From: a virus
Lineage: Duplodnaviria > Caudoviricetes
Reading direction: 5' to 3' (one strand)
DNA length: 64,000 bases
Virus record (IMG/VR): IMGVR_UViG_3300012952_003952
Location: 177,979 to 241,978 of that record
Of this stretch, positions 2,356 through 55,359 are shown piece by piece. The position numbers were made by a program, and so were the translations under genes. The stretch's first letter is position 1. Each line of letters begins with the position of its first letter. The notes below the pieces were generated by a model. It was not told where the DNA came from, did no database searches, and saw only the letters and a list, made by a program, of their open reading frames with translations.

Positions 2356-2384
2356 ATTAGCTTTTTTTGTGTTATATTTTTAAC

Positions 2385-2810
2385 ATGAAGAAATGGAATC
2401 CACCAAAATCACCATGGAATCTTGTGCAAGAGCCATATTTCGGTGATGAATGGAAAATTCTTATATGCTGTCTGTTATTGAATCTTACGACTCACAAGCA
2501 AGTTAGAAAAATTTTAGACGAGTTATTTGAGAAATACCCTAATCCAAAATCTATGTGTTTGGCTGAAGAAGAAGATTTAAAAGATTTGCTTAGTTCTCTT
2601 GGTTTAGTTAACAAGAGAGCAAAAACGCTTATTCGGTTCTCTCATGAATACCTTACCAAAGATTGGAAGACGGCTAAAGATTTGTACGGCTGCGGAAAAT
2701 ATGCTGATGATGCATGGCATATTTTTTGTGTCGGAGATTGGCAAAGCGTTGAGCCAAAAGATCACGCATTAAACTATTATCATGACTTTTTGAGGGAGAA
2801 TTATGCCTGA
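2385..2810 (+). CDS. MBD4-like HhH-GPD DNA glycosylase (T/U:G mismatch type)
   Basis: SPWNLVQE..W, KRAKTLIRFSHEYLTKDW, LYGCGKYADD, IFCVGDW..V.PKDH.LN.YH closely follow the MBD4 glycosylase domain. Confidence 0.85.
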   Translation: MKKWNPPKSPWNLVQEPYFGDEWKILICCLLLNLTTHKQVRKILDELFEKYPNPKSMCLAEEEDLKDLLSSLGLVNKRAKTLIRFSHEYLTKDWKTAKDLYGCGKYADDAWHIFCVGDWQSVEPKDHALNYYHDFLRENYA

Positions 2811-3609
2811 AGGCCCAGAATGCAGAAGAATTGCAGAGTCGCTTGCAAAAGAAGTTTCTAATAAGACCATCGTGGGTATAGACATCCTCGGAGGCAGGTA
2901 TACTAAGAAAGAACCATCAGGTTTATCAGATTTAATTTCTGATCTACCGATTGCCGTTGCTGGGGTAGGTGTTCATGGAAAGTTTATTTATTGGATTCTT
3001 TCTAAAGAACATTCGCTCTGGAACACTCTTGGAATGAGTGGACATTGGTCTGGTGAAGAGCAAAAACATTCTAGAATAAAAATCAGGTTTTCTGATAAAA
3101 CGCATGTTTACTTTAATGACACTAGAAATTTTGGAACAATTAAATTAGTAAAGGGAAAATCAGAGCTTATAAAAAAGCTTAAATCTCTTGGTCCAGATAT
3201 GCTCTCAGAAGACGTTGATAATATAACATTTTTGTCTGCGCTTAGAAAGAAAAATAAACACAATATATGCAAAGTTCTTATGGACCAAAGCGTCATCGCT
3301 GGCGTAGGAAATTATGTAAAAGCTGAAGCATTGTGGTTAGCTAAAATTAATCCAGCTTCTAACGTTCAAGATTTAGAAGACTACCAGTTAATAGATCTTA
3401 ATGAGTCTATTAAAAGTGTTTTAAGAGCTTCTTACGAAAGCGGAGGAGCTACTATTAAGTCATATAAAAACTTTGATGGTGAAATTGGGGATTACTCTTC
3501 TCGGTTTCTTGTTTATAATCAGAAAACAGACCCCCACGGAAACGAAGTGGTAAAGTTTCAAACCCCAGACGGTAGAACAACTCACTGGGTGCCAGAAGTT
3601 CAAATTTAG
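2803..3609 (+). CDS. Fpg/Nei family DNA glycosylase/AP lyase, zincless-finger type
   Basis: N-terminal MPEGPE, HGK, LGMSG, FNDTRNFG, LGPD, H2TH LMDQ..IAGVGNY; C-terminal DGRTTHWVPEVQ without Cys. Confidence 0.92.
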   Translation: MPEGPECRRIAESLAKEVSNKTIVGIDILGGRYTKKEPSGLSDLISDLPIAVAGVGVHGKFIYWILSKEHSLWNTLGMSGHWSGEEQKHSRIKIRFSDKTHVYFNDTRNFGTIKLVKGKSELIKKLKSLGPDMLSEDVDNITFLSALRKKNKHNICKVLMDQSVIAGVGNYVKAEALWLAKINPASNVQDLEDYQLIDLNESIKSVLRASYESGGATIKSYKNFDGEIGDYSSRFLVYNQKTDPHGNEVVKFQTPDGRTTHWVPEVQI

Positions 3610-3617
3610 GAGAAAAA

Positions 3618-3899
3618 ATGAGCGAAGAAACAACATACAAAATGACAGATCATTCTATTGCCCACGTGGCGAAATTAATTCAGGTTGCTATGCTAACTGG
3701 AACAGACATAGTAGATCATTTGCGCTCTGTAGAGTTTACACTCGATGAAAACGGAGGGCTAACCCCATCTTCAGCAACTCTTTCGTCTCTAGGTTCAGAA
3801 ATTGAATCTATGTTTACAGACCTTGAAAATGAGGCAAGTAATCAAAATGACATTAGCTTCGAAACTCCTAATCAGAAAACAACTATTTTTGAAGTATAG
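3618..3899 (+). CDS. Hypothetical protein
   Basis: ORF with GGAG RBS. Confidence 0.6.
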   Translation: MSEETTYKMTDHSIAHVAKLIQVAMLTGTDIVDHLRSVEFTLDENGGLTPSSATLSSLGSEIESMFTDLENEASNQNDISFETPNQKTTIFEV

Positions 3900-4753: not shown

Positions 4754-4986
4754 AAATCGGTTCTCTTATAGTGTTTGAAGAAGAAGCTCAAGGATATGAT
4801 CTAGTTCAAAAGCAGGGCAATCTTTTTAGAAATGATCTAATAAGAATAAACACTGGAACCTGTGGAATAGTTTGCAAGCTTTACGACTACCCATCTACTA
4901 ACATGACACTGGCAGAGATACTAATTGGAAACAAGCTTGTTTGTGACGTTAATTTAAATAAGCACGAATACAAGCTTATAAATTAA
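4750..4986 (+). CDS. Hypothetical protein (SH3-like beta pattern)
   Basis: MKIGSLIVF start, GIVCK; ATGA overlap with upstream gene. Confidence 0.5.
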   Translation: MKIGSLIVFEEEAQGYDLVQKQGNLFRNDLIRINTGTCGIVCKLYDYPSTNMTLAEILIGNKLVCDVNLNKHEYKLIN

Positions 4987-5717
4987 AAACATTCTCTTGC
5001 AATTGAAACAGATCCGCTTGGAGAAGCTTGAAAAGTTCTTATTTTGACATGCGGATAATAGTCTTTGCATAAATCTGCAACAGCGTCGATATTGCCAGAA
5101 TTGTCATCATAAAAATACACTTCATCTGGATCATATTGGTCTATGTAAGATTTCATTATGCTTGCTTTAGCGCTAGGGTTCCCTCCCATATCACCAGCAG
5201 TATGAATGTCTCCACTAGAAATGCTTAATCCTTGAGAATTTAGAAATTGAGAAATGTCTTCTCTGTTCGTAGCTTTTACAGAGTTTCCCCTAAGAGAATC
5301 TAGATCTTGGTTACCAGATCTTGCTGTTATGATTATCACTAAAGAGCTAGGGCTACTCTGCGCGCTTTTAGCTATATTCAATATATTTTCTATTGGAGAA
5401 GTAGAATCAATGTTTACGCCGGCAGTTTCTGAAAAATCGAAAACATCTTCTAGCTCATTAGAAGAAAGGTAATCTAAATCTTTTCTTGCTTTTTGCTCAT
5501 AGTGCGCAAAGTCTTCTGATGAAAACCAAACTATTTCATTTTCAGTGCCTTTATTCTCTACAGAGTTAAAATCTAGTGAATTGTCTAATATCCAATTCAT
5601 GAATTCTGGATCAGCTTTTCCGCTTGGTTTATTTCTCCTAACTCCGATCAGATTATCAGTTATAGCTAGCGTATCATCAAAATCAAACGCGAATATTTTT
5701 TTAATTTTTGAAGCCAT
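4983..5717 (-). CDS. HAD-superfamily phosphatase
   Basis: Motif I FDFDDTL, motif II IITARS, conserved K, motif IV FYDD; start at MASK. Confidence 0.8.
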   Translation of the reverse strand: MASKIKKIFAFDFDDTLAITDNLIGVRRNKPSGKADPEFMNWILDNSLDFNSVENKGTENEIVWFSSEDFAHYEQKARKDLDYLSSNELEDVFDFSETAGVNIDSTSPIENILNIAKSAQSSPSSLVIIITARSGNQDLDSLRGNSVKATNREDISQFLNSQGLSISSGDIHTAGDMGGNPSAKASIMKSYIDQYDPDEVYFYDDNSGNIDAVADLCKDYYPHVKIRTFQASPSGSVSIARECF

Positions 5718-5774
5718 GTACAATTTCCTTATGCAAAATATAAGTATTATAGTATTATCTAACAAGAGACTCTA

Positions 5775-6122: not shown

Positions 6123-9100
6123 ATGAAAACACCCAGCAAGTTTTTTGGTTTACACGCGCATTCTGGCTTTTCTATTTTCGATGGGCTAGGTTATCCGCAA
6201 GAACATATTGATTTTTGTAGAGAGAATGGACTAGACGGATGGTCCATGACTGACCATGGTCACATGAACGGCTTTGGTCACGCTTATTTGCACACGGAAA
6301 AGCTAAATAAAGCAGGCGGTAATTTTAAGTTAATCCCCGGCTGCGAGATGTATGTTCATCCAGATTTAGACGTGTGGAAGCTAGATTACGAAATCAATAA
6401 AACAGCTAAAAAAGGAGACAAAGAAGCTTTAGCTATTTTAAAAAAGCAGAGAGAAGCAATTCAAACTCCTCTTCTCGCTTTTGTAGATGAGCATGACGAA
6501 ACTTTAAACGTTGGCCTAGAAGGCGCTTCTTTGACCGTTGAAAACGAAGAAGAAACTAAATCAGGAAAGTTTTATGATCCGATCAAGCGTCGTCACCATC
6601 TAGTGGTTTTACCAAAAACTTCCGAGGGATTGCAAAGGTTGTTCCACTTAGTTTCTCGAGGTTACACAGAGGGATTCTATAGATTTCCAAGAGTAGACTA
6701 TAAGATGCTTAAAGAAGCCGCTAAGGGTGGCCATCTAATGGTATCGACAGCTTGTATCGGTGGACCGTTAGCCTATGACGTGTTCCAACCGCTGCAAGAA
6801 ACCAATTTTGAAGATCTCATTCCTTCACTTTTTGATGACGAATCTTTAAGAAATAAAATTCTTTCTAAGTTTGAATATTCTTATGACCAGCTAGCGGATG
6901 CCGTTGGAGAAGAAAATGTAATGCTGGAATTGCAGTTTAATAAACTCCCAGCGCAGCACTTAGTAAACAAAGCTATATTAGAATTCGCTAGAACGCGATC
7001 TTTAACAGATCAACTTATTGTTACTTGCGATTCTCATTATGCTTCTCCTGACCACTGGAAAGAGAGAGAGCTTTATAAAAAGCTCGGGTGGCTAAACTAT
7101 CAAAGCTTTAATCCAGATAATTTGCCCAAATCTAAAGAAGACTTAAAGTGCGAACTGTACCCTAAGAATGCAAAACAGGTTTGGGAATCATATCTTGAAA
7201 CGACAGAAGGCCACGATTTTTATGAAGATTCAGAAATATTTGACGCTATAGAAAGAACACATGATGTTGCTCACGAGATGATTGGAGAAATTCACCCTGA
7301 TCGTAAAATGAAATTACCTTCTTATGTAGTTCCTAAAGGCCAAACAGCGAATAAAGCTCTTTTAGAAGCAGCTAAAGCTGGATTAATCAAGCGAGGACTA
7401 GCAAATCAACCAGAATATGTCGACAGGATGAAGACAGAGCTTAAAGTTATTTTTGATAAAAATTTCTCTGAGTATTTCTTAACCATGAAAGCAATTATTG
7501 ATCTTGCTCGCGAGAAAATGCTAGCTGGACCAGGCCGCGGATCTGGAGCAGGGTCTCTAGTGAATTACGCCCTTTATATTACTGACATAGATCCAGTGGA
7601 ATATGGGCTCTTATTTGAGCGGTTCATGTCTCCAGAGCGAACCGAAATGCCGGATATCGACACCGATATCGCAGACCGAGATGAACTCATTAAAATTCTT
7701 AGAGAGAATTTTGGTAACAAAAATGTGATTCCGATCTCAAATTACAATACTTTCAAGATCAAAAGTCTTCTTAAAGATGTTTCTAGATTTTATGGGATTG
7801 AATTCTCAGAAGTAAATAAGACTCTAGCTTCTCTAGAAAGAGATGTTGCTCAAGGAAGAAAAGCAGACGGCGTGGACGCAGCTTTTGATATTAGTTTTGA
7901 AGAAGCCAAGAAGTATTCTACTAAAGTTAGTGATTATCTAGAAAAATATCCTCAAATTGCAGACCCTATCAATGTGCTTTACAAGCAAAATAAAGCACTT
8001 GGCCGACACGCTGGTGGTGTCATTGTTTCTGAAAAAATAGAAGAAAGAATGCCTTTGATTGTGGCTCGTGGCGAAATGCAAACTCCTTGGGTCGAGGGAA
8101 TGAACTACAAGCACCTTGAAGAGTTTGGTTGGATTAAGTTTGATCTCCTCGGCCTAGAAACTCTTAGAATTATCGAAAGAACAATTTCTCTTGTTTTACA
8201 AAAATCAGGGGTGGAGAACCCAACGTTCGACCAGGTGGTAGATTGGTACAATGAAAATATTGCCCCAAACGTAATTGACTTCAACGATAGCAAAGTTTAC
8301 AAAAACGTATATCACTCTGGAAGGTGGGCTGGTATTTTTCAGTGCACTCAAAGAGGTGCGCAAGCTCTATTTAAAAGAGCTAAGCCAGAATCAGTAGTAG
8401 ATTTAGCTACTCTTACTTCTATTTATCGTCCTGGTCCACTTTCTGCAAAAGTAGATAAGCTTTACATTAAAGCCAAAAACAATCCGCAGAATGTTTTTTA
8501 TGGTCACCCTTTAATCGAACAAGTTCTAAATTCAACTTATGGAATGATTATCTTCCAAGAGCAAGTAATGGAACTTTGCCATGTCGTAGCCGGTTTTCCA
8601 AAAGCAGAATGTAATAAGCTTAGAAAGATGATGAAGCCGGTTGGGTCTGGTAACGAAAATGTAAAGAAGGCTGCAGCTCTAAAGAATAAATTCGTAGAAG
8701 GAGCTTCGCAAAATGGAGTAGATAAAAATATAGCTAGCGAGCTTTACGATAGAATCTTGTATTTCAGTGGCTATGGTTTCAATAAGTCTCACGCTGTTTC
8801 TTACGCAGTTAATTCTTACCACTGCGCTTGGCTTATGACTTACTACGAGCAAGAATGGATTCAAGCTTATTTAGAAGCTTGTTCTGGTAACCCTAAAAAG
8901 CTTTCTAAAGCCCTAAGCGAAGTAAAAGCTTTAGGATACAACATTGTTCCCATCGATATCAATAAAGCTGGTAAAGCTTGGAGTTGCGTAGACGACAATT
9001 CTTTGATGCCGTCTTTTCTCTCTTGTAAAGGCGTTGGCGAAGCTGCTGTAGAAGAAATCTTAGAGCAGAGACCTTACTCTTCTATTGAAGATTTGTTTTG

Positions 9101-9722
9101 GGATGAAGAAGGAAAGTGGAAGCATGCAAAATTCAATAAAAGAGCTATTGAATCTTTAATCAAGATTAGAGCTTTTGATTCTCTTGATTGTGTGGGTCCA
9201 GACAAAACTTTCCAAAGTTATTCTCACATGCACACTGTACTCATGGAAAACTTTAATGATATCAGGAAGAGAACCAAGAAAGATCCTTATCGCGGCAAGA
9301 ATAACTTTATTAAAGCTTTAGTAGAATCTCCTCGTTCTGAAGAGTGGTCTTTCGATGCGTTGATGAACTTTGAAGAAGAGTTGTTGGGAACTATTAACGT
9401 AGAAGCTCTTCTTCCGAAAAAATTCGTGAAGAAGATGACCGAAAAGAATATCCATTCTTTAGACGATCATAACGGAAGAGAGTTTTATTGGTTCGTTTTG
9501 ACTAAAGCTATACCTAAGCTTACAAAAAACAAGAAGCCATACCTTCTTTTAAATGGAATAGCTTCAACTGGAAGGGTCCATAGAATGTTTTGCTGGGGAG
9601 TTCCTAAAGATGCTGACCTTCCGCCGTTTACTTTTTGTATAGCCGAAGTAGACAAAAACGACTTTGGGATGTCTACTAAGTGGAACAGAATTAAAAAATT
9701 TAGCTTTAATGATTTAGCTTAA
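6123..9722 (+). CDS. dnaE: DNA polymerase III alpha subunit (family C)
   Basis: PHP domain (HAHS..S.FDG, TDHG, DSHY), GPGRGSGAGSLV, catalytic MPDIDTD, GRHAGG, KFDLLGL, YRPGP, YGFNKSHA. Confidence 0.97.
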   Translation: MKTPSKFFGLHAHSGFSIFDGLGYPQEHIDFCRENGLDGWSMTDHGHMNGFGHAYLHTEKLNKAGGNFKLIPGCEMYVHPDLDVWKLDYEINKTAKKGDKEALAILKKQREAIQTPLLAFVDEHDETLNVGLEGASLTVENEEETKSGKFYDPIKRRHHLVVLPKTSEGLQRLFHLVSRGYTEGFYRFPRVDYKMLKEAAKGGHLMVSTACIGGPLAYDVFQPLQETNFEDLIPSLFDDESLRNKILSKFEYSYDQLADAVGEENVMLELQFNKLPAQHLVNKAILEFARTRSLTDQLIVTCDSHYASPDHWKERELYKKLGWLNYQSFNPDNLPKSKEDLKCELYPKNAKQVWESYLETTEGHDFYEDSEIFDAIERTHDVAHEMIGEIHPDRKMKLPSYVVPKGQTANKALLEAAKAGLIKRGLANQPEYVDRMKTELKVIFDKNFSEYFLTMKAIIDLAREKMLAGPGRGSGAGSLVNYALYITDIDPVEYGLLFERFMSPERTEMPDIDTDIADRDELIKILRENFGNKNVIPISNYNTFKIKSLLKDVSRFYGIEFSEVNKTLASLERDVAQGRKADGVDAAFDISFEEAKKYSTKVSDYLEKYPQIADPINVLYKQNKALGRHAGGVIVSEKIEERMPLIVARGEMQTPWVEGMNYKHLEEFGWIKFDLLGLETLRIIERTISLVLQKSGVENPTFDQVVDWYNENIAPNVIDFNDSKVYKNVYHSGRWAGIFQCTQRGAQALFKRAKPESVVDLATLTSIYRPGPLSAKVDKLYIKAKNNPQNVFYGHPLIEQVLNSTYGMIIFQEQVMELCHVVAGFPKAECNKLRKMMKPVGSGNENVKKAAALKNKFVEGASQNGVDKNIASELYDRILYFSGYGFNKSHAVSYAVNSYHCAWLMTYYEQEWIQAYLEACSGNPKKLSKALSEVKALGYNIVPIDINKAGKAWSCVDDNSLMPSFLSCKGVGEAAVEEILEQRPYSSIEDLFWDEEGKWKHAKFNKRAIESLIKIRAFDSLDCVGPDKTFQSYSHMHTVLMENFNDIRKRTKKDPYRGKNNFIKALVESPRSEEWSFDALMNFEEELLGTINVEALLPKKFVKKMTEKNIHSLDDHNGREFYWFVLTKAIPKLTKNKKPYLLLNGIASTGRVHRMFCWGVPKDADLPPFTFCIAEVDKNDFGMSTKWNRIKKFSFNDLA

Positions 9723-9757: not shown

Positions 9758-10606
9758 ATGAATTCGAAATACAAAAATTTAAATCAAGCCTTTGTAGAAG
9801 AGTTAGTCGATTGCCACAAGAACGGCGTAGAAGTTGAATCTCGTGGCTTCGTACAAAAAGAAAAACTTTTCTCTTCTTTTATAATTCAAGATCCCACCGA
9901 TTTGCGAATTGATGTCCCAGCTAGAAAGTTCAATGAAGACTATGCAATTTTAGAATGGCTTTGGTACCTAAACTCTGACTCTAGAATAAAGACTATCGGT
10001 AAATTTGCAGATATTTGGAACAAGATTGCAGATTCGCAAGGGGTCGTTGAGTCTAACTATGGCTCTTATTTAAAGCCGTGCTGGTATGACTTAGTAGATG
10101 AGCTTATATCTGATAGAGATACCCGTAGAGCAACTTGCGTAATTAATCAGCCATACCATAGGTTCAAAAACCCAAAAGACTATCCTTGTACGCACTATAT
10201 TCACTTTTTTATCAGAGAAGAAGCTCTTCACATGGGCGTATATATGCGGTCTAATGATGCAGTTTTTGGTTTTTGTAACGACGTTTTCACCTTTGCGTTG
10301 TTTCAACAGCTTATGCTAAATGAACTAAACGCTCGCGGTGGTAAACTTTCATTAGGAACATACTACCACTCGGCTGGAAGCTTTCACGTATACGATAGAC
10401 ATTATTCTATGATGGAAAAGATAGCTGAAAATTATTTTGTGAAAGCTAGAAGAAATGGGTATCCAACCGACTTAAAGAAAATAGTGCTAGATCCCAATTT
10501 AACCTGGCCGAAAATGGAAAACTACACGTCTTTTTTCAATGAAGACTTAGACAAAGAAGAAGTTTTAAATACAATTAAAAAGACTAAGGAAATTATATTC
10601 AAATGA
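9758..10606 (+). CDS. Thymidylate synthase homologue of dCMP hydroxymethylase/methylase type
   Basis: DTRRA, catalytic YPCT, MRSNDAVFGFCND with Asp at the position of the TS Asn (T4 gp42-like), AGSFHVY. Confidence 0.85.
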   Translation: MNSKYKNLNQAFVEELVDCHKNGVEVESRGFVQKEKLFSSFIIQDPTDLRIDVPARKFNEDYAILEWLWYLNSDSRIKTIGKFADIWNKIADSQGVVESNYGSYLKPCWYDLVDELISDRDTRRATCVINQPYHRFKNPKDYPCTHYIHFFIREEALHMGVYMRSNDAVFGFCNDVFTFALFQQLMLNELNARGGKLSLGTYYHSAGSFHVYDRHYSMMEKIAENYFVKARRNGYPTDLKKIVLDPNLTWPKMENYTSFFNEDLDKEEVLNTIKKTKEIIFK

Positions 10607-10884
10607 ATATTCTAAAAAAAGCAAATGAGATAATCAATGAAAGATCTGAAGAAAAAGAGCGCCAATACGGCCCAATGGGTGAAGGCCTTGAAAGAGCTGC
10701 GATGATTGCTTCTGGAATAACGGGTAAAGATTTAACAGCAGACGATATTTTTGCATGCCTCATCGGCCTTAAATTTTCTAGACATTCGTATAACTACAAA
10801 GAAGATAATTTTCTAGATGCTGCTGCTTATTTGGGAGCGTGGAACAATTACCAACAGGAGAAATTAAAAAGTGAAGATAAGTAA
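10603..10884 (+). CDS. DUF6378-like small all-alpha protein (putative dNTP pyrophosphohydrolase)
   Basis: ILKKANEIINER..E..RQYG, IGLKFSR, DNFLDAAAYL. Confidence 0.65.
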   Translation: MNILKKANEIINERSEEKERQYGPMGEGLERAAMIASGITGKDLTADDIFACLIGLKFSRHSYNYKEDNFLDAAAYLGAWNNYQQEKLKSEDK

Positions 10885-11305
10885 AGTAAGGGCAGTTAAA
10901 ACACCGCAAAGGGGGACTCCAGAGTCAGCTGGAATTGATTTTTTCGTGCCAGAGGGAATGATAGCTAAATTATCGCCTGGAGACTCTTGCTTGATGCCAA
11001 GCGGAATCAAAGCCAATGTTCCATCTGGCCATGCATTAATAGCGTTTAATAAGAGTGGAGTAGCAGTTAAGAAATCTCTTCACGTTGGGGCATGCGTCGT
11101 AGACGAAGATTATCAGGGCGAAATTCACCTTAATTTAATCAATGTTGGCTCGAGCGTTGCAGAGATAAAATCTGGAGAAAAAATAGTCCAATTTATTTTA
11201 CTTCCTGTTTTTTATGACACAATTGAAGAAGTAGAATTGGAAAACCTTTACGAAGACGAAACTGTTCGAGGTGAAGGTGGTTTTGGTAGCACGGGAGTAG
11301 AATAG
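10871..11305 (+). CDS. dut: Trimeric dUTPase
   Basis: AGIDF, KSG, VVDEDYQGEI, QFILLP, RGEGGFGSTG. Confidence 0.95.
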   Translation: MKISKVRAVKTPQRGTPESAGIDFFVPEGMIAKLSPGDSCLMPSGIKANVPSGHALIAFNKSGVAVKKSLHVGACVVDEDYQGEIHLNLINVGSSVAEIKSGEKIVQFILLPVFYDTIEEVELENLYEDETVRGEGGFGSTGVE

Positions 11306-12375
11306 TGGATTATTTTGTAGATTATGAAATTCCTAAAAACTTTAAGATAGGGATCGACGGACTAGAGAGAAACATTCCGGCTAGAAAACACAGCCACAAT
11401 GCTGCCTGGGTTCATCTCTACAAAAATATGCTACAATCTGCTGGCTGGAGTGATGTACACGTCTTAGGCAATCATGACACTTACGAAGGTTATGATGCTA
11501 TGATATTTTATCCAGGAATTGCTTACGCTGGAACGATTAACTTCTTTTTTGGAGTTGACGACAATGTAGTTAGAAGGTTCTCCAGAATTCAAGATTTTGA
11601 AGGTCCGACTTTTATTTTAAATCATGAAATGCCGCTCATTGGAGCGACGATCAGCAAAAGACTGCACAATAAATCGACAAGCTCGAAAATTGGAAATCTT
11701 AAACTGAGCTTATTAGATGATATTTGCAAATCTACTCGCAGAATAGATTATGTTGAAAGATCAACAAAGCTTTGCTTTGGAGACAGTCATTGTTTTTCTG
11801 CTTATCTTCCAGGGTATTCTGTTTGCCGAAATGACGGGCTCACTCTTTTTTCTACGCTTCGCGATGGAGTAAAAGAGACCATTGAAGAAAAATATGGAGC
11901 TTCTGTTGAAAATTTGACTCATCTTACTTTTTATATGGGCAATATTGATATAAGGCACCACTTGATGCGCCAAGAAAATCCATATGAAAAAATCCACGCT
12001 ATGACTATCGAGCTTTCACACCAGCTTAAAAAACTTGATATACCAAACATTGAACTAGTTCACGCACTGCCTATCGAAAATATTTCTAGAAAACTTCCTA
12101 AAACTGGATATTATAAGAAGACTCCATATTTCGGAACTTGGGAAGAAAGAACAAAATTAGTCAATACATTCAATGCCGCTGTAGATAGAATTTGTATAGA
12201 AAACAAATGGAATTCTTTCCACTGGCCAGCTAAATTTTTAAATGATTCTGGTGAATTAGACTTTGAATATATGGAGCGCCCTAAAAGCGTACACTTAAGC
12301 CCGCTTTCTTATAGGTGGGACCTTTTTGAAAATCAATTAAATTTATTGCATAGTAATCAAAACAACGGAGAATAA
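11305..12375 (+). CDS. Putative DNA-modification protein: BGT-like N-terminal region plus SGNH-hydrolase-like C-terminal domain
   Basis: YDAMIF...TINFFFG resembles T4 beta-glucosyltransferase YDRLIV..SINFFGG; FGDSH, MGNID, SVHL resemble SGNH blocks I, III, V. Confidence 0.45.
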   Translation: MDYFVDYEIPKNFKIGIDGLERNIPARKHSHNAAWVHLYKNMLQSAGWSDVHVLGNHDTYEGYDAMIFYPGIAYAGTINFFFGVDDNVVRRFSRIQDFEGPTFILNHEMPLIGATISKRLHNKSTSSKIGNLKLSLLDDICKSTRRIDYVERSTKLCFGDSHCFSAYLPGYSVCRNDGLTLFSTLRDGVKETIEEKYGASVENLTHLTFYMGNIDIRHHLMRQENPYEKIHAMTIELSHQLKKLDIPNIELVHALPIENISRKLPKTGYYKKTPYFGTWEERTKLVNTFNAAVDRICIENKWNSFHWPAKFLNDSGELDFEYMERPKSVHLSPLSYRWDLFENQLNLLHSNQNNGE

Positions 12376-12376
12376 T

Positions 12377-13567
12377 ATGCCAAAAAACAAGTCAATTAGA
12401 GTTGCAATCGTCGGAGTCGGAAATTGTGCTAATTCCTTTTACCAGGGCTTAACGTATTATGCGGGGTACACCGCTGGACAAGAGCGCGATGGAGTGATGA
12501 AGAGCCGAATCGGAGGATATTCGGTAGCTGATCTCGAGGTTGTAGCAGCATTCGACGTTGATAAACGAAAAGTTGGAAAGTGTTTTAGAGAAGCTATGCT
12601 AGCCAAACCAAACTGTACTCCAAGCTATGAGGCAAATGTTCCTGACGGTCCCGTAGTTCAAATGGGCCCAATCATGGACGGTGTTCCAAATTTGATGGCT
12701 AATTATTCTGATGAAGAAGCGTTTAGAACTGCTGATTTAGAACCAGTAGATGTGGCTCAAGTGTTATTAGACCGCAAAGTGGATATTCTTATCAACTATC
12801 TTCCTGTTGGTTCTCAGAAGGCCACCGAGTGGTATGCAGAACAGTGCCTTAAGACTGGAGTTTCTCTTCTTAACTGTATTCCAGTTTTTATTGCTTCTAA
12901 TCCAGTTTGGGAGCAAAAGTTTATTGATGCTGGAATTCCACTCGTTGGCGATGACATGAAATCTCAATTTGGGGCCTCTATTATGTCTCAAATGCTTCAA
13001 GAACTAGCTTTTGCTCGAGGTCTAAATGTTAAAGCTCACATTCAGCGAAATGTCGGTGGCAATACTGATTTCTTGAACATGGTAGATCAATCTCGGCTGA
13101 AATACAAGAAAGTTTCAAAGGAGAATGTAATTCGATCTCAACACGTAATTCGTGGTGTAGACCCCGAAGAATCTTTCCTCCATGCTGGGCCGTCTGAATA
13201 TATTCGCTACTATGGAGATAACAAGGTCGCAAACTTCCGAATTGAAATGGAGGGATTCCTTGGTGCCCCAGTTATTTTAGACGCGCAGCTTTCTGTAATT
13301 GACTCTCCTAACTCTGGAGGCGTTGTAATCGACGCCGCTCGGTATCTAAAAGTCGCCAGAGAGATGGGCATTGTAGGGGCTCTCAGAGGTCCGTCTGCTT
13401 TTACTCAGAAGACTCCGCCTCAACAGCTTATGTTTAGTGAAACTCTTTATGAATGCGACGCTCTTTCTGATAGGAGGCTCACTCGATTTACTAAGCGCCA
13501 AACAGAAAAATACAGCGCTGAAGAGCTTTACCTATCGTGTCCAGCAGGAAACAAGGAAGTAGATTAA
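12377..13567 (+). CDS. ino1: Inositol-3-phosphate (myo-inositol-1-phosphate) synthase
   Basis: AIVGVGNCA, INYLPVGSQKA, GDDMKSQFGA, NVGGNTDFLNM, GPSEY, DSPNSGGVVIDAAR. Confidence 0.95.
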   Translation: MPKNKSIRVAIVGVGNCANSFYQGLTYYAGYTAGQERDGVMKSRIGGYSVADLEVVAAFDVDKRKVGKCFREAMLAKPNCTPSYEANVPDGPVVQMGPIMDGVPNLMANYSDEEAFRTADLEPVDVAQVLLDRKVDILINYLPVGSQKATEWYAEQCLKTGVSLLNCIPVFIASNPVWEQKFIDAGIPLVGDDMKSQFGASIMSQMLQELAFARGLNVKAHIQRNVGGNTDFLNMVDQSRLKYKKVSKENVIRSQHVIRGVDPEESFLHAGPSEYIRYYGDNKVANFRIEMEGFLGAPVILDAQLSVIDSPNSGGVVIDAARYLKVAREMGIVGALRGPSAFTQKTPPQQLMFSETLYECDALSDRRLTRFTKRQTEKYSAEELYLSCPAGNKEVD

Positions 13568-14283
13568 TGGCTAAATTGCATGAGCAAAAAGGAAAACTTT
13601 TTAATCCAGACTCTGAAGATTTTGAAGAGTGTGTAATAAAGTTTAACGGAAGGAATGGGTTTTGGTACAGACCAGGCACTTTTGATTTAAATTCTATAAG
13701 AGAGTGCAGAGACAATTATAGCGATATTGACACTTGCGGGAAAACAGTTTTAGATTTAGGAGCCAACATTGGAGGATTTTCAAGAATGGCTCTAGAAAAA
13801 GGAGCTAAAAAAGTAATAGCTTTAGAGCCATGCCCTCATAATTTTCAAATTTTAGAGATCAATGCCCCAAATGCAGAATGTCTAAATGCTGCAGTTTGCG
13901 AAAGCAAGGTAAAAGAAGTAGTTTTTCATTATGCTGGATCTAAAAGAAACTCAGTGTCGTCTTCTACTCTTAAAAGAAGAAATGCTTCTGGAGTATCTAT
14001 TGCAGTACCAGGATTATCATTTTCAAGTCTTTTAGAAAAATATAGGCCAGAAATATTAAAAATAGACATTGAAGGTAAAGAGTACGACATTTTAGATTCT
14101 ATTAAAGAAATTCCAGATTTCGTAGAAATAGTAGGGATTGAGTTTCACAATACTCGTAAGCCATACTCAGAATATCCAGTTAAATTTTTCCCAGAGTCCA
14201 CTTGGAAGAAAGTAGAACACCCTATTTTGATGTTCGGACAGAAAAAAGTTTTAGATTACACTTTTTATAGAAAGTATGCATAG
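13567..14283 (+). CDS. FkbM-family SAM-dependent methyltransferase
   Basis: VLDLGANIGGFS, VIALEP, LKIDIEGKE; TAATG overlap with ino1 stop. Confidence 0.85.
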   Translation: MAKLHEQKGKLFNPDSEDFEECVIKFNGRNGFWYRPGTFDLNSIRECRDNYSDIDTCGKTVLDLGANIGGFSRMALEKGAKKVIALEPCPHNFQILEINAPNAECLNAAVCESKVKEVVFHYAGSKRNSVSSSTLKRRNASGVSIAVPGLSFSSLLEKYRPEILKIDIEGKEYDILDSIKEIPDFVEIVGIEFHNTRKPYSEYPVKFFPESTWKKVEHPILMFGQKKVLDYTFYRKYA

Positions 14284-14292
14284 GAAATATTA

Positions 14293-14709
14293 ATGAAAGT
14301 AAATGGTTTTGATATTGATGGAGTTATCCATCTTGGAGACGGAGTCTGCGGCATTCGCCCGGGCCCTGGAGATGTTATCATCACAGGACGAAGCTTTGAA
14401 GAAGAAGCTGAGACTCTAGCTTTTCTTCGGCGCAATGGAATTAATAACCCAGTTTTTTTTAACCAGTGCCATTATGAGGAAAAATCTCGAACAGGGTCAG
14501 GAAATCATAAGGCGGAAACTATTAAGCTTCTCCACAGAGCTGGCTTAAGCGTTCAATATTTTTTTGAAGATGATGAAGTTCAAAAAGCTGAAATTGAAAG
14601 AGGCATCGAAGAAGTCTCAACTTGGGGAATCGGAACTAAAGTTATTCACGTCAACAATCCTCATGTTAAGAAAGAAAATAGACGTCATTTAGAGGATTTA
14701 AATGAGTAA
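14293..14709 (+). CDS. Capless HAD-family phosphatase
   Basis: FDIDGVI, ITGRS, HKAETI, FFEDD. Confidence 0.8.
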   Translation: MKVNGFDIDGVIHLGDGVCGIRPGPGDVIITGRSFEEEAETLAFLRRNGINNPVFFNQCHYEEKSRTGSGNHKAETIKLLHRAGLSVQYFFEDDEVQKAEIERGIEEVSTWGIGTKVIHVNNPHVKKENRRHLEDLNE

Positions 14710-16156
14710 TTCTGAACTTCTTAAAATGAGGGATGAAGAACTCTTTGCAGAGATACCCACTTACAAAAAGCAAGATTTTGTCGACTTTATAAAAGAGCTT
14801 AACAGAAGAGAGTACTTAGTAAGATTTGCAAAGTCGTGTACTTTTGACTCTTTTGAGCATTTGCCTGGAACTGGATTTAAATACGGGAACGGCTTTATAG
14901 TAGACGGCAAATCAGTACCTTACTTCCACCCCAATCGTAGTTTTCATGATGAGATAATTTGGTTAAACGAGAACCTATTCTATAATCCCCAAGCTACGTT
15001 TGAAGATAAACTTATTAATGCGGCGATAGTGAAATTCTATGGGCCTTCTAATACCCTTAAACTAATTGCTGAGGGCACCGGCAAGAAATTCGTGGACTAC
15101 AAGAGGTTCGTGGGAGATCCTAAATACTTGAGGCAGGTTTGCGTCAATTTAGAAACAGCAGTTAAGAATAAAGAAAAGATTTATGGAACAACTGAGCTTA
15201 GGACAAGCTTACAAACAGCTGGTAGAAATTATGCTAGAAGCGTTGGTTCTCCAATTGATAAAATAGAATTAATTCCAGTTTCTGAAAGGAAATCTCGTAC
15301 GTGCCGTCCCTCTGATATTCTTTTTTGGTTTACTAAAATCGGCCCTGATTTTGTTAAATTTTATAAAACAACACCCAACATGGAAGAGTCTTTTAAGTTT
15401 TTAAATTCATTTCGAGGAATTGGAAATTATTATGGATACCATTTTAGTTGTAACCTTGCTCGAATGCCAGAAGTAGGAAATTTAATTTTTAAGGGAACTC
15501 CTGGAAAAATTGACGAAGACGACGAGTATGTAGTTCCTGGGGTTGGAGCAATGCAAGCGATTAATTGGTTTTATGAACACAGGGGACACTCAATTAATAC
15601 AAAAGTTGGAAAGAAATTAATCAATGCTATTCGACGTCACCAAAATAGTTTCTTTGACTTAAATAATGCTGATAATTCTAAATTCTATATGGAAAAAGTT
15701 TCTGAACTGGGATATTTTACTAATTTTGGATGTGAAATATCTTGCTGCCAGTTTGGAGTTTATCGTCGACTAAGAGAAGATAAAAAATTAGCTCTAAGGA
15801 GAGCAGCAGCGCCAATATCAAGAGAGGAAGTAAAAATGATTCTTACGCCCAAAACACTAATGCAAAAACTCGGTCTTTTATCTGAAGAAGATTCTAATGT
15901 TGAAAATAAAAATCAAAGTATTGAAAAAGATTCTTCACTAGATTTTTCTTCGACTAGCAAAGAAGACTTGATCCTTAACATCATTGATGAAGCTGGAGGT
16001 TCTTGTTCACATTCTTCAGTTGCTAAATTAATCGAAGAAAAAGGATACACTCAGTATAAGCAAAATGGTTCTTGGAAAGAGAGCTGGATGATAATGAGGC
16101 AACTTGTTGAAAAGGGGGCCTTAGTAAAAGACGGAAAATTTTATCGGAGGTCATAG
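14702..16156 (+). CDS. aGPT-Pplase1 / 5-hmdU DNA kinase helical-domain-like protein with C-terminal winged-helix-like tail
   Basis: YFHPNRSFHDEIIW, RGIGNYYGYHFSCNL, DEDDEYVVPGVGA, CEISCCQFGVYRR follow the family pattern (F.N..R..D...W; G.G.F..Y....DL; D.....GPGA; E...CE..KY.R). Confidence 0.7.
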   Translation: MSNSELLKMRDEELFAEIPTYKKQDFVDFIKELNRREYLVRFAKSCTFDSFEHLPGTGFKYGNGFIVDGKSVPYFHPNRSFHDEIIWLNENLFYNPQATFEDKLINAAIVKFYGPSNTLKLIAEGTGKKFVDYKRFVGDPKYLRQVCVNLETAVKNKEKIYGTTELRTSLQTAGRNYARSVGSPIDKIELIPVSERKSRTCRPSDILFWFTKIGPDFVKFYKTTPNMEESFKFLNSFRGIGNYYGYHFSCNLARMPEVGNLIFKGTPGKIDEDDEYVVPGVGAMQAINWFYEHRGHSINTKVGKKLINAIRRHQNSFFDLNNADNSKFYMEKVSELGYFTNFGCEISCCQFGVYRRLREDKKLALRRAAAPISREEVKMILTPKTLMQKLGLLSEEDSNVENKNQSIEKDSSLDFSSTSKEDLILNIIDEAGGSCSHSSVAKLIEEKGYTQYKQNGSWKESWMIMRQLVEKGALVKDGKFYRRS

Positions 16157-17334
16157 TGTCAGATATTAAGTGGGGAACAATTATTCCTCTTATTGGCGGA
16201 AGCGCTATAGGGTGCTCACAAGCTACTAAAAATAAACCAGAGTTTCATCTTAGCTACTCTGCTTTCGGCGCTAACGAAAAATATCTAACTGACTACTGGA
16301 AAGATGTTCCGAGAATAGTTTTAGATGAAGGTGGAAAAATACCAAACGAAAAAATTGATTTTATCAATTCTGTTTGTCCGTGCGCAGGCCTAAGCCAGCT
16401 TAATACTTCTAGAAGTAAAGATATGCGTGAATCTAAAAACTATTGGATGTACGAATCTGCACAGAGAATCTTAAGCGAACTACGCCCTAGAGTTTATTGG
16501 GGAGAAAATGCGCCCGGCCTTTTTACTAATTCAGGCGCGTACGTGCGTGATAAGCTTAAAGTTTTTGCTAAAGAAAACGGCTACACTTTTTCTCTTTACA
16601 AGACCGATACGCAAAGGCACGGTATTCCGCAACGCAGAGTAAGAACTTTTTACTTTTTCTGGAGAGACACTAACCCTCCTCTCTTGAGCTATTTTAATAA
16701 CCCTCCCATTCCATTCGCCGAGTACATAAGACAGATACCGCAATCTGCAACCCTTCAAGATCAATTTAACATCGAAGGGAAAATCTCTGAAAATTTTGAT
16801 TCTTATGCTTTTGTGTTACAATATCTTGGGTTGGCGCATGAAGAGTTCGTGAAGTCTAATGATTCTGGCTCTATTCACTCTATTTTTTCTTATCTATCAG
16901 AAAATAATCTTTTAGCCGAGTGTATTGAGTGGATTGAAAAAAGAAATATTGAAGAAACTGCAGAACACAGACGACTCAAAGCTATTTACAAAAAAGTTCA
17001 AGCGGGTGGAAGATTTATGGATGCTTCTCCTGGATATTATTACAACCGCACTAATGCAATCGTAGGAAGAACCTTGACCCATTTAGTACACCCCACTGAA
17101 GACAGAGGGATGTCTATTAGAGAGCTTCTTCATATGATGGGACTGCCCCATGATTTTGAAATGGGCGATAGAAAATCTCTAAATGTAATCGCTCAAAATG
17201 TTCCAACTTGTACAGCTAGAGATATGGCAAGTCAAGTTATAGAATACTTAAGAGGTGATTTACAAATTGCAGAAAACAGCTTTTTAATGCAAAATAACCT
17301 AAAAGAGGAGATTACATTATGCGAGCCCTTGTAA
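16156..17334 (+). CDS. C5-cytosine methyltransferase-fold protein with atypical motif I
   Basis: Motif IV VCPCAGLS, VI WGENAP, VIII PQRRVRTFY, IX/X RELLHMMGLP..F, QNVP; motif I is PLIGG; GTG start. Confidence 0.8.
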   Translation: MSDIKWGTIIPLIGGSAIGCSQATKNKPEFHLSYSAFGANEKYLTDYWKDVPRIVLDEGGKIPNEKIDFINSVCPCAGLSQLNTSRSKDMRESKNYWMYESAQRILSELRPRVYWGENAPGLFTNSGAYVRDKLKVFAKENGYTFSLYKTDTQRHGIPQRRVRTFYFFWRDTNPPLLSYFNNPPIPFAEYIRQIPQSATLQDQFNIEGKISENFDSYAFVLQYLGLAHEEFVKSNDSGSIHSIFSYLSENNLLAECIEWIEKRNIEETAEHRRLKAIYKKVQAGGRFMDASPGYYYNRTNAIVGRTLTHLVHPTEDRGMSIRELLHMMGLPHDFEMGDRKSLNVIAQNVPTCTARDMASQVIEYLRGDLQIAENSFLMQNNLKEEITLCEPL

Positions 17335-22680: not shown

Positions 22681-23045
22681 AAGTTGAAAAAATTGCGAAC
22701 GGCTTACTTTACGAAAGGTATAAAAGAAAACTTTTAGAAGCTCTTTCCGAAGTAGATGTTTTAGATGATCAGGGTAATATCATAATATCGAAAGATTTAA
22801 AAGTGAAACATAAAGATTCTGGTTTTGAATACACAGTAGATGATGTAGTAGATGATAATGGAAATGTCAGTATCTATCTTAGAGATCCCACTGCCCCGCG
22901 TATAGAAGATCCACCAGGAGACGAAACTTTATTAGGCGCTCCTCCAGCCGCAGATTTTCTTCATGAAGAAGACGACGAAGACGAAGAAGATACTGTATTT
23001 GTAATAGATCAAAGTGAATTTGAAAAGGAATACGAAATAAAATGA
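22677..23045 (+). CDS. Hypothetical acidic protein
   Basis: ATGA-coupled ORF. Confidence 0.6.
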   Translation: MKVEKIANGLLYERYKRKLLEALSEVDVLDDQGNIIISKDLKVKHKDSGFEYTVDDVVDDNGNVSIYLRDPTAPRIEDPPGDETLLGAPPAADFLHEEDDEDEEDTVFVIDQSEFEKEYEIK

Positions 23046-23728
23046 AAGATTTAGAAAAAAATTTAAAGGCACAAATACGCTCGGATCTTGGTATAGAAAA
23101 TGAAAAACTTTCTGAAGCTTATGTTACTAAAGCCAAAAAGTTCAATCTAAACACTGAGCTCCTTAGCACTAAAACAAAGAAAGTTCAGCAAGAAATGCTT
23201 AACGGCTATGTAGAAACACTTAACGATACTGCTGCTTCTTTAGACACGGCAAACAGAGACAATGCTAATTCCGATTCTTCTAAGTTTAGGTCTTTAAAAA
23301 TAGACGAGATTTATAATCTAAATGGAGCGTTTCTTTTTGGGTTGCACTTTGAAAATATTTCAGACCCGCAGTCTCAAGTTGCGATGGACTCTTTGTCATT
23401 TATGAGACTAGAAAGAGATTTTGGCACTTTTGATGAATGGCAAAAAGATTTCATTGCTTGCGCTCTTTCTTCTCGCTCTGGTTGGGTAGTCACTGTTTAC
23501 AATGGTTTTTTGAATCGATACATAAATTGCACAGTAGATTCTAATGACATTAGTATTCCAATCAATTCTTATCCAGTTTTAGTTTTAAGCATGCATCCTG
23601 AATCTTATGTTCGAGATTACTTAGAAGACAAAAAAGCTTATGTTTATGCAATGATGCAAGAGCTTAACTGGGGAGTAATAGAAGATAGATTCAAGAAGTC
23701 TGACAGAATTAGCAAGGTGCTTCGATGA
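23042..23728 (+). CDS. Fe/Mn superoxide dismutase-fold protein with degenerate metal ligands
   Basis: GYVETLN, FGTFDEWQKDF, SGWVV, PVLVL..., DY...KKAYV...LNW match the SOD scaffold; DxWEH replaced by SMHPES. Confidence 0.75.
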   Translation: MKDLEKNLKAQIRSDLGIENEKLSEAYVTKAKKFNLNTELLSTKTKKVQQEMLNGYVETLNDTAASLDTANRDNANSDSSKFRSLKIDEIYNLNGAFLFGLHFENISDPQSQVAMDSLSFMRLERDFGTFDEWQKDFIACALSSRSGWVVTVYNGFLNRYINCTVDSNDISIPINSYPVLVLSMHPESYVRDYLEDKKAYVYAMMQELNWGVIEDRFKKSDRISKVLR

Positions 23729-53997: not shown

Positions 53998-54300
53998 ATG
54001 AAAATCACTAAAAGACAACTTAGAAGAATTATTAACGAAGCTTGGGCTGATACAGGTGTAGATCTAGTCCAGTTTATAATCGACAACATTCAAGCAGAGT
54101 CAAACCCAACCGGCGCAGTCGATTGGGATACTGATGAACTCTATGAATTTTTAGAAAAACAGGGTTGGACAGAAGAAGAAATAGATTTCGCAGTAGAAGA
54201 CCCTCGCGTAGGTAAATACTTTGACAGGCTTGAAGGCCTTTACTCAGCTAAACAAGGGACGCTTGATGACTATAATCAGCACCCAGAATGGTTTAATTAA
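53998..54300 (+). CDS. MKITKRQL-leader protein 7
   Basis: MKITKRQLRRIINEA. Confidence 0.75.
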   Translation: MKITKRQLRRIINEAWADTGVDLVQFIIDNIQAESNPTGAVDWDTDELYEFLEKQGWTEEEIDFAVEDPRVGKYFDRLEGLYSAKQGTLDDYNQHPEWFN

Positions 54301-54302
54301 AA

Positions 54303-54542
54303 ATGAAAATTACAAAGAGACAACTAAGAAGAATTATCAAAGAGTATAAAGAAATGCTCAGCCCCGGCCACATAGACGGCCAGCCGTGGAGCGGTACCTT
54401 AGAAGATCTCGCCGTAGTCCAAAGTAAGACTTGGGGCCATGGAGAAGTCGTAGACAAGAAAGGCTACCGAGATATAGTCGGTCACGCTAGAGACTTAACG
54501 GCTGGAAAAGCTAAAAGCCCAGTAAAAAAATACGGAAAGTGA
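54303..54542 (+). CDS. MKITKRQL-leader protein 8
   Basis: MKITKRQLRRIIKEY. Confidence 0.75.
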   Translation: MKITKRQLRRIIKEYKEMLSPGHIDGQPWSGTLEDLAVVQSKTWGHGEVVDKKGYRDIVGHARDLTAGKAKSPVKKYGK

Positions 54543-54543
54543 T

Positions 54544-55359
54544 ATGCCAGAGAGCACTTATGAAAAATTTAAAGTGCTTGGATATGTACGGCCAGCTGAA
54601 GTGTTCCACACTCTTGACGAATGGGAACAAGTAGTTCTGGAGTTGATAGAACTCCAATCGGGCGGTTTAGATACTCGAGCTGGAGAAATTAGCTGTAAAC
54701 ATGCTTCTTTTTGTTCTACAGAAGATTTTGATAGGTTTGTAGAAATCATAAACACTTATTTTGGATATCAACTAAATATAGAAACTGAAAGATACGACCT
54801 CTTGACAAAAAAGAACGTCTTAGATTTTGTCGAAGATTTTGTGAATCATAGATTTTGGGGATTTGAACAAGAGTTTTCTTCTTATTTCCCCAATATAGGA
54901 CAGTTGAAGTTCGCTTACTTCTATTCGCGTGGAGATATGGAACCATATGTTATGCTTGACGAAGCATACACGACTCAAATCTATGGCCCTGAAACTATAG
55001 TCAGACCCGTTTGTCATTTTACTAGTCCTAAAGGTTTAGAAAGACTTAATTTTGCCATAGAGAATGGAGAAGCTTTTGACATTTCTACTTACACTACAGC
55101 AGAGCGTCCATTCTTCAGAAAAGAATCTACCCTTACGATAGAGTTGTTAGGCCATGTAAGAGCAGCTTTCAGAAGCGATATTAAATCTTTAGCTCTCGAC
55201 AATGGCCGCAGAGCTTGCAATATGTACAGGCTCCAATACCCTGGAAGAAACGTCAGTAACATTTGTTATGATTTGACGACATGCGACGATGAAGAAGTAA
55301 TTACAAACCTCTGGAACGAATATATTGCTACGCCTATTAGAATTATTGGCGTATCATAA
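54544..55359 (+). CDS. Hypothetical protein
   Basis: 271-aa ORF directly after the array. Confidence 0.65.
   Translation: MPESTYEKFKVLGYVRPAEVFHTLDEWEQVVLELIELQSGGLDTRAGEISCKHASFCSTEDFDRFVEIINTYFGYQLNIETERYDLLTKKNVLDFVEDFVNHRFWGFEQEFSSYFPNIGQLKFAYFYSRGDMEPYVMLDEAYTTQIYGPETIVRPVCHFTSPKGLERLNFAIENGEAFDISTYTTAERPFFRKESTLTIELLGHVRAAFRSDIKSLALDNGRRACNMYRLQYPGRNVSNICYDLTTCDDEEVITNLWNEYIATPIRIIGVS

Follow-up and report, generated by a model that had tools for sequence, protein, structure and literature searches.

An MBD4-family glycosylase gene overlapping a zincless Nei gene in a giant phage of a marine clade: a probable two-gene module for the repair of deaminated cytosine

The MBD4 glycosylase has been treated as a eukaryotic guard of methylated genomes against C-to-T mutation. 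In enterobacteria, dedicated T:G repair by the Vsr endonuclease travels with Dcm, the enzyme that makes 5-methylcytosine (5mC). Ung leaves thymine and 5-hydroxymethyluracil (5hmU) in place, so that a genome in which every cytosine is modified at C5 would specifically need an enzyme that acts on these bases. In mammals, NEIL enzymes are said to speed the turnover of TDG. Here, we describe two overlapping genes at positions 2385 to 3609 of a 64-kb stretch of viral DNA (the window; positions 177,979 to 241,978 of record IMGVR_UViG_3300012952_003952), which forms the end of that IMG/VR virus record (242 kb; estimated completeness of 57%). The first gene encodes a stand-alone MBD4-family glycosylase domain, and the second encodes a predicted zincless glycosylase/apurinic-apyrimidinic (AP) lyase of the Fpg/Nei family. 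We consider it probable that the pair is a phage module that starts base-excision repair of deaminated (C5-modified) cytosine and that its target is the phage's own DNA. The logic is that of Vsr and Dcm, but Vsr is a sequence-specific nicking endonuclease with an unrelated fold and not a glycosylase. The chemistry is feasible in such genomes, since the mouse MBD4 domain removes T and 5hmU opposite G from deaminated DNA of the phages XP12 and T4gt, fully modified with 5mC or 5-hydroxymethylcytosine, in all sequence contexts (preprint 10.1101/2023.03.02.530819).

The product of the first gene (2385..2810, + strand; 141 amino acids [aa]) was compared with all PDB chains using phmmer. The best matches were the glycosylase domains of mouse and human MBD4 (E value of 2.4e-44, 154 bits, residues 2 to 140), with approximately 50% identity to the mammalian domain. 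Other families of the helix-hairpin-helix (HhH)-GPD superfamily scored far below this value (27 bits for MIG and 21 bits for EndoIII), and the only Pfam match was HhH-GPD (PF00730). An AlphaFold model built on 31 relatives (predicted local distance difference test score of 95.2) closely resembled sixteen MBD4 structures, 4E9E, 4EVV, and 6VJW among them (template modeling [TM] scores of 0.93 to 0.95; root mean square deviation of approximately 1.0 Å). The next folds, those of MIG, MutY, and EndoIII, reached TM scores of only 0.6 to 0.69, against 0.94 for MBD4. These three enzymes belong to the same superfamily, and MIG too removes T opposite G, but they carry an iron-sulfur (Fe-S) cluster domain that is absent here: the modeled chain forms a compact, all-helical HhH fold of seven helices and ends directly past the final helix. 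The mammalian MBD4/MED1 domain (1NGN, 4DK9, 4E9E, 4EVV, 4EW0, and 6VJW) has the same fold over its full length and likewise lacks an Fe-S region. Sequence and model together place the protein in the MBD4 glycosylase-domain family, as a preliminary description of this DNA had proposed; bit scores, TM scores, and the tree described below all group it with MBD4 and not with EndoIII, MutY, or MIG.

Unlike mammalian MBD4, the window protein is phage encoded, its gene overlaps a Nei gene, and the methyl-CpG-binding domain and linker are absent, so that the open reading frame (ORF) consists of the glycosylase domain alone. Its start codon is ATG, and relatives begin at the same place; one longer relative on the phage side was found, a 288-aa metagenome protein (P0271). 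Plant MBD4-like matches also showed the glycosylase domain only in the precomputed Pfam list, and the methyl-CpG-binding domain is therefore probably not a defining feature of the glycosylase family.

The positions of the functional mouse MBD4 residues were compared across 121 sequences from marine phages, 147 of the eukaryote type, and the homologue from Xanthomonas phage XP12. In mouse MBD4, Gln423, Tyr514, and Val422 (human Q449, Y540, and V448) read the thymine O2, N3, and O4 and exclude cytosine, the catalytic residue is Asp534 (human D560), and changing the equivalent of human Y540 to Phe nearly eliminates activity (PMC3458566). The catalytic Asp (D126, corresponding to human D560), the leaving-group Tyr (Y106; human Y540), and the Gln that reads O2 and N3 of a uracil-type base and thereby shuts out cytosine (Q15; human Q449) showed no variation among the 121 marine phages or in XP12. 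The position of human V448, a main-chain contact, was occupied by V, I, or L. Further invariant positions in the phage branch (human numbering) were L466, N467, T469, and L506, and the equivalent of L508 was conserved. The Arg finger (R468), which occupies the space vacated by the flipped base, was not kept: it was replaced by Leu, Met, and Gln in 92, 19, and 10 of the marine phages, respectively, and by Leu in XP12, whereas Lys or Arg occurred in 115 of the 147 eukaryote-type sequences. Two residues facing the C5 side of the base also differed from those of the mammalian enzyme. The C-alpha of G471 sits 4.0 Å from the thymine C5-methyl group (PMC3458566); this position was Arg or His in 117 of 121 marine phages and Trp in XP12, compared with Gly or Ala in 138 of 147 eukaryote-type sequences. 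K562 stacks on the flipped base and contacts the 5hmU hydroxyl, and its Ala mutant is 5- to 10-fold slower (PMC3458566); this position was Ala in all 121 marine phages, Lys in XP12, and Lys or Met in 123 of 147 eukaryote-type sequences. As judged from these alignments, the phage branch retains the residues for catalysis and for readout of the uracil edge, with the DNA wedge and both C5-facing residues rebuilt. The changes on the C5 side of the pocket may reflect a different preferred C5 group. The altered Arg finger marks a distinct subfamily, in which a hydrophobic wedge may substitute for the finger.

The second gene (2803..3609, + strand; 268 aa) matched PF01149 (N-terminal domain), PF06831 (H2TH; E value of 2.3e-18, above the cutoff), and PF21025 (C-terminal domain). 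Its best solved relatives were 3A46, which is Mimivirus Nei1 (MvNei1), and sibling structures (E value of 3e-46), far ahead of the best bacterial Fpg (8e-26). MvNei1, like human NEIL1, has a zinc-free beta-hairpin, and the role of its DNA-binding Lys, K60, has been described (PMC7139703). Among 120 relatives of the window protein, P2, E3, E6, K60, M78, F110, N170, and the finger Arg R258 were invariant, R108 was present in 119, and the N terminus read MPEGPE in 106. The zincless finger, K60, the finger Arg (R277 in MvNei1), the N-terminal Glu3 and Pro2 (the nucleophile in this family), and the void-filling M-R-F triad are thus shared with MvNei1 and NEIL1. Unlike those enzymes, the window protein is phage encoded, shorter, without a disordered C-terminal tail, and paired with an MBD4-type gene. 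It contains two Cys residues in all (C7 and C156), none of them in the last 45 residues, where the 120 relatives have zero or one; the lack of zinc finger cysteines noted in the preliminary description was confirmed. These features identify a predicted zincless Fpg/Nei enzyme that is nearest to Mimivirus Nei1. The two genes do overlap, as had also been noted: the start codon of the Nei gene lies within the 3' end of the MBD4-like gene, and the two share the 8 nucleotides ATGCCTGA on the + strand (2803..2810).

The pairing recurs in a clade of marine phages. A word-based search recovered 370 MBD4-like relatives of comparable length, nearly all of them from marine metagenomes, and 2,468 matches to the Nei family. 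Scanning viral contigs with a single protein yielded 3 loci, and an alignment-based query of IMG/VR yielded 80. The common order in these 80 loci was MBD4-like gene, Nei, a small acidic ORF, and then DnaE and a thymidylate synthase (TS) homologue; Nei lay within 10 kb in 49 of them, mostly directly downstream. For an unbiased sample, we anchored on DnaE and took the 50 longest records of the clade (G001 to G050), which include fragmentary ones. The MBD4-like gene was present in 30 of these records and Nei in 25; both occurred in 19, only the MBD4-like gene in 11, only Nei in 6, and neither in 14 (odds ratio of 4.0; Fisher P = 0.04, uncorrected for phylogeny and fragmentary records). In the 19 records with both, the genes abutted (≤20 bp) or overlapped in 8 and lay ≤5 kb apart in 15. 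Records with the MBD4-like gene were richer in GC (locus GC, 0.452 versus 0.419; GC at third codon positions of DnaE, 0.521 versus 0.440; P of approximately 0.015, with some of the negative records being short fragments). The trend in 15 phylogenetically independent pairs (11 versus 4) was not significant (sign test P = 0.12).

Individual loci of the clade showed signs of turnover. The slot between a conserved membrane-anchored ORF and Nei is a hot spot of cassette exchange. In G028 (IMGVR_UViG_3300025133_000085, approximately 54228 to 54870; loci L113 and L123), the MBD4-like gene is reduced to residues 3 to 41 and adjoins a Nei gene with two in-frame TAA codons, a state that looks like joint decay of the pair. 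In G049 (IMGVR_UViG_3300016471_001002, 112985 to 113404, − strand), the MBD4-like gene contains one in-frame TGA, which could reflect a pseudogene, an error of sequencing, or recoding of the stop codon.

Among cultured phages, the family was found in a single group. A tblastn search of 50,697 phage records with the MBD4-like protein gave 13 matches, all in the XP12 group (Xp12, YB23, MET13-T1, Ep029, FMYAK-P1, DoCa6, AXL_1, and Donnerlittchen), and all 13 records encode a close homologue of the XP12 TS. In Xp12 DNA, 5mC replaces all cytosine (PMC8256090). The XP12 protein (QNN97216.1; L160:5839-6321, corresponding to MT664984.1 46973-47455) is annotated as a hypothetical protein. Its best PDB match was MBD4 (E value of 5e-14, compared with 5e-4 for EndoIII), and it shares 44% identity with the window protein. 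In Xp12, the gene for the MBD4-like protein lies in the dCMP-methylase operon and is followed by those for a MazG-like pyrophosphohydrolase, an Asp-type TS, a dCMP deaminase, and DHFR; the remaining positive phages have the MBD4-like match approximately 0.8 to 1.1 kb upstream of the TS match, a gap of one gene. The XP12 protein, which has relatives in Bosavirus-like phages, resembles that of the window in having Leu at the Arg finger and a bulky residue at the Gly471 position, and its gene likewise has an Asp-type TS nearby and is an optional cassette. It differs in that Lys is kept at K562, there is no Nei partner, and the gene overlaps a MazG-like gene inside a nucleotide-modification operon; XP12 itself is a 64-kb siphovirus with plain 5mC. 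The Xp12 neighbor annotated as a "HAD superfamily hydrolase" is a MazG/PRA-PH-type pyrophosphohydrolase (Pfam PF01503, E value of 7e-15). A correspondence between this gene and the HAD-like gene of the window (4983..5765, − strand) was rejected, as the two did not match.

The link to modified cytosine runs through the TS homologue. In the window, a nucleotide and DNA-modification cluster begins at 9758 with a predicted dCMP C5-hydroxymethylase (9758..10606, + strand), which follows a DnaE-type polymerase (6123 to 9722). Its best PDB matches were the CMP hydroxymethylase MilA and the T4 dCMP hydroxymethylase, and it carries Asp at the position of TS Asn177 (motif RSNDAVFGFCND). A 5-hydroxymethyldeoxyuridine (5-hmdU)-DNA-kinase-like gene is also present in the cluster. 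The TS homologues next to DnaE in approximately 90 clade loci were all of the Asp type, with the one exception of L136, which gave no match to the motif pattern. Those of the clade (L001 to L159 and the window) fell into three classes, RSNDAVFGFCND (approximately 280 aa), RSSDLIFGIAYD (approximately 340 aa), and RSNDIWAGYRND (approximately 240 aa), which suggests several different cytosine-modification chemistries among related phages. The MBD4-like gene accompanies at least two distinct classes of Asp-type TS. In both lineages, presence of the MBD4-like gene implies an Asp-type TS, and an Asp-type TS does not imply the MBD4-like gene. Because the MBD4 type is limited among phages to two unrelated lineages with known (XP12) or predicted (marine clade) C5-modified cytosine, it probably removes deaminated modified cytosines; the discriminating evidence for this link comes from the cultured phages of the XP12 group.

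Phage and eukaryotic MBD4 domains formed two well-supported sister groups in a careful maximum-likelihood tree of 59 domains, with which a larger quick tree agreed. The split (support of 100/95) separated 18 marine-phage sequences, XP12, and two short metagenome sequences from 38 eukaryote-type sequences, and animals were monophyletic on the eukaryote side (100/97). This relationship is new here; no phage MBD4 homologue was described in the literature that we searched (open-access papers and preprints). A HMMER search over 1.84 billion cluster representatives returned long proteins with the domain at the C terminus and a few short metagenome proteins. The long matches that were looked up were MBD4 or MBD-domain proteins of copepod, mouse, snake, shrimp, and snail; plant MBD4-like proteins were found through a separate search. 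A pattern scan of 185,579 prokaryotic species (one genome per species) revealed no MBD4-like homologue, a result that rests on two motifs and is suggestive only. The tree is unrooted, for want of a close outgroup, and therefore does not show whether the domain passed from phages to eukaryotes or the other way; the branch leading to XP12 is very long. One far-reaching scenario, which we put forward tentatively and regard as unlikely, is that fully C5-modified phages own an ancient MBD4 branch whose pocket was rebuilt on the C5 side (Lys to Ala and Gly to Arg or His) to excise bulky deaminated hypermodified cytosines, and that it was such a phage lineage that gave eukaryotes their MBD4 domain, rather than eukaryotes that gave it to phages.

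The proposed repair pathway is based on the family, the fold, the catalytic and base-reading residues, the gene overlap, the synteny, and the restriction to two phage lineages with Asp-type TS; from these we infer the substrates, the hand-over to Nei, and the phage's own DNA as the target. The MBD4-like protein, most likely a monofunctional mismatch-specific glycosylase, would flip a uracil-type base opposite G, namely, what deamination of cytosine or of a C5-modified cytosine leaves (U, T, 5hmU, or a uracil carrying a bulkier C5 group), and its conserved Asp would cut the glycosidic bond. Nei would remove oxidized pyrimidines and would probably also take over and cut the abasic site left by the MBD4-like enzyme. 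Searches of the window record and four large relatives per family revealed no gene for an ExoIII- or EndoIV-type AP endonuclease, a polynucleotide kinase (PNK) 3'-phosphatase (PNK3P), a member of the uracil-DNA glycosylase (UDG) superfamily, or a second HhH-GPD protein. Nei is therefore the only recognizable AP-site enzyme in these genomes and probably cuts the MBD4-like product. A partner that clears the product would make sense given that mouse MBD4 is strongly product inhibited, with a turnover of approximately 4 h (PMC3458566). The remaining 3' phosphate would be cleared by host functions or, possibly, by the HAD-like protein encoded at 4983..5765 (− strand). This protein has a DFDDT motif and matched PHROG 415 ("polynucleotide kinase"; E value of 3e-6), had no PDB or Pfam support, and occurs only in the five closest phages; it is a weak candidate for a 3'-phosphatase acting after Nei cleavage. 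The gap would then be filled from the phage's modified dCTP pool and ligated.

Several observations weigh against this reading or restrict it. The marine-phage proteins lack the Arg finger and Lys562 of mammalian MBD4, and activity and specificity may therefore differ from those of the mammalian enzyme. The T-even phages yielded no MBD4-like homologue in the tblastn search. XP12 has no Nei, and the XP12-type phages DLP4 and PaMx28 keep the operon and the Asp-type TS and lack an MBD4-like gene at the same slot. In the marine clade, the MBD4-like gene and Nei are each found without the other. Neither of the two relatives with a completeness of at least 90% (G002 and G023) has the MBD4-like gene, and G002, which is the closest relative (DnaE identity of 92%; 293 kb, terminal repeats present), carries the same hydroxymethylcytosine/inositol-type cluster. 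Window positions 2357 to 2784 correspond to only 68 bp in L158 in a DNA alignment, a clean, gene-sized difference, and the slot in L085, from the closest complete relative (IMGVR_UViG_3300007513_000001), holds a gene for a 275-aa sulfotransferase-like protein (L085:5837-6664; Pfam Sulfotransfer_1, E value of 7e-8). The presence/absence pattern and the gene-sized difference show that the MBD4-like gene is a common yet optional accessory cassette, which fits a modified-cytosine genome without proving one. Nor can the gene tell which modification is present. The association of the gene with Asp-type TS, which had been put forward as a check, held in the marine clade and in the XP12 group; because all TS homologues of the marine clade are of the Asp type, it is not discriminating within that clade, and the association amounts to two independent cases, not many. 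The preliminary description had further taken the pair as independent support for C5-modified cytosine made by the cluster at 9758 to 17334. This claim stood in part. The 5mC of XP12 and the Asp-type TS speak for it, but the cassette is missing from the closest relatives with the same cluster, and the gene is thus not a marker of that cluster and is weak as independent support for it. New support for modified cytosine comes instead from the XP12 link and the C5-side pocket changes.

Other functions for the pair were considered against the same data. It could be a generic repair kit for sunlit surface water, with the MBD4-like protein mainly removing uracil that arises from ordinary cytosine deamination and Nei removing oxidized bases, and with neither tied specifically to cytosine modification. 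U:G is indeed the best substrate of mouse MBD4 (kobs of 1.7 per min, versus 1.0 for 5hmU and 0.45 for T; PMC3458566), the MBD4-like gene is optional, and Nei is far more widespread than its partner and occurs without a tie to MBD4-independent features. We nevertheless consider this explanation unlikely. Plain uracil would, in our judgment, call for the common UDG family, which is not encoded, and both C5-facing residues are systematically changed; furthermore, the confinement of homologues among the phage records to the 5mC-containing, Asp-type-TS-encoding XP12 group and the negative scan of prokaryotic species are not what a generic kit would predict.

A role in counterdefense, in which the pair repairs host-inflicted damage caused by DNA or nucleotide deaminases or by glycosylases whose removal of modified bases leaves abasic sites, seems less likely again. 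Defenses in which a host glycosylase attacks the modified bases of a phage are known (PMC11078745; 10.1101/2025.10.29.685425), the cassette-like turnover is typical of arms-race genes, and Nei is the only AP-site enzyme encoded. However, an AP lyase nicks DNA and without downstream steps would add to the damage, and no defense or antidefense genes were seen around the module, whose neighbors function in replication and nucleotide metabolism. Finally, the MBD4-like protein might be biosynthetic, a base-flipping transferase for hypermodification comparable to aGPT-PPlase, a glycosylase-like enzyme in the hypermodification of thymidine. Phage base hypermodification has been proposed to involve an enzyme resembling a glycosylase (PMC8256090), and the kinase-like gene of the nearby cluster and the altered C5-facing residues could be read in this way. 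We regard this as highly improbable, since the residues that read a uracil-type rather than a cytosine-type Watson-Crick edge are invariant, only the HhH-GPD family was matched in Pfam, and XP12, whose 5mC is plain and made at the nucleotide level, does not require an enzyme that works on DNA. The MBD4-like gene is moreover missing from the closest relatives that have the same cluster, a distribution that already suggests that the modified base persists in natural MBD4-negative relatives.

With repair of deaminated modified cytosine as the preferred explanation, the large phage sister branch of MBD4 makes several questions accessible to experiment. XP12 is culturable and a classic all-5mC model, in which it can be tested how fully modified viruses cope with deamination that is faster and invisible to UDG. 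It can likewise be tested whether repair of deaminated 5mC had its origin in phages, as did other components of the DNA-modification toolkit of eukaryotes, and how the C5-facing pocket residues affect the substrate range. Context-independent glycosylases for T:G and 5hmU:G have already been used against sequencing errors (preprint 10.1101/2023.03.02.530819), and the phage MBD4-like enzymes are small, single-domain candidates for such clean-up.

The window is densely packed with genes, nearly all on the same strand, and has a GC content of approximately 38%; the gene content around the module is that expected of a large tailed phage. Its first 8,000 positions had no blastn match in the phage records, and a promoter and terminator scan around the module found sites no more frequently than in shuffled sequence. 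The small acidic protein (3618..3899, + strand; 93 aa) is encoded behind Nei, or behind the MBD4-like gene where Nei is missing. Its ORF was found in 57 of the 80 MBD4-anchored loci and in most DnaE-anchored loci and is more widely conserved than either glycosylase gene. The protein had no family in Pfam, PHROGs, or NCBIfam, and its matches in the protein atlas were viral hypothetical proteins only. Widely conserved and flanked by the repair genes and DnaE, it may serve as an accessory factor in replication instead of in repair. Upstream of the module, a gene for an amidase_2/peptidoglycan-binding protein, which is likely an endolysin (193 to 1128), is immediately followed by a gene for a 4HBT-family thioesterase (1130 to 1594). 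This pair adjoins the MBD4/Nei module in many relatives, and the thioesterase is an unusual gene for a phage. Farther downstream (23042 to 23728), the window encodes a C-terminal Fe/Mn superoxide dismutase domain (Pfam E value of 1e-13), which, like Nei, fits a pressure from oxidative damage.

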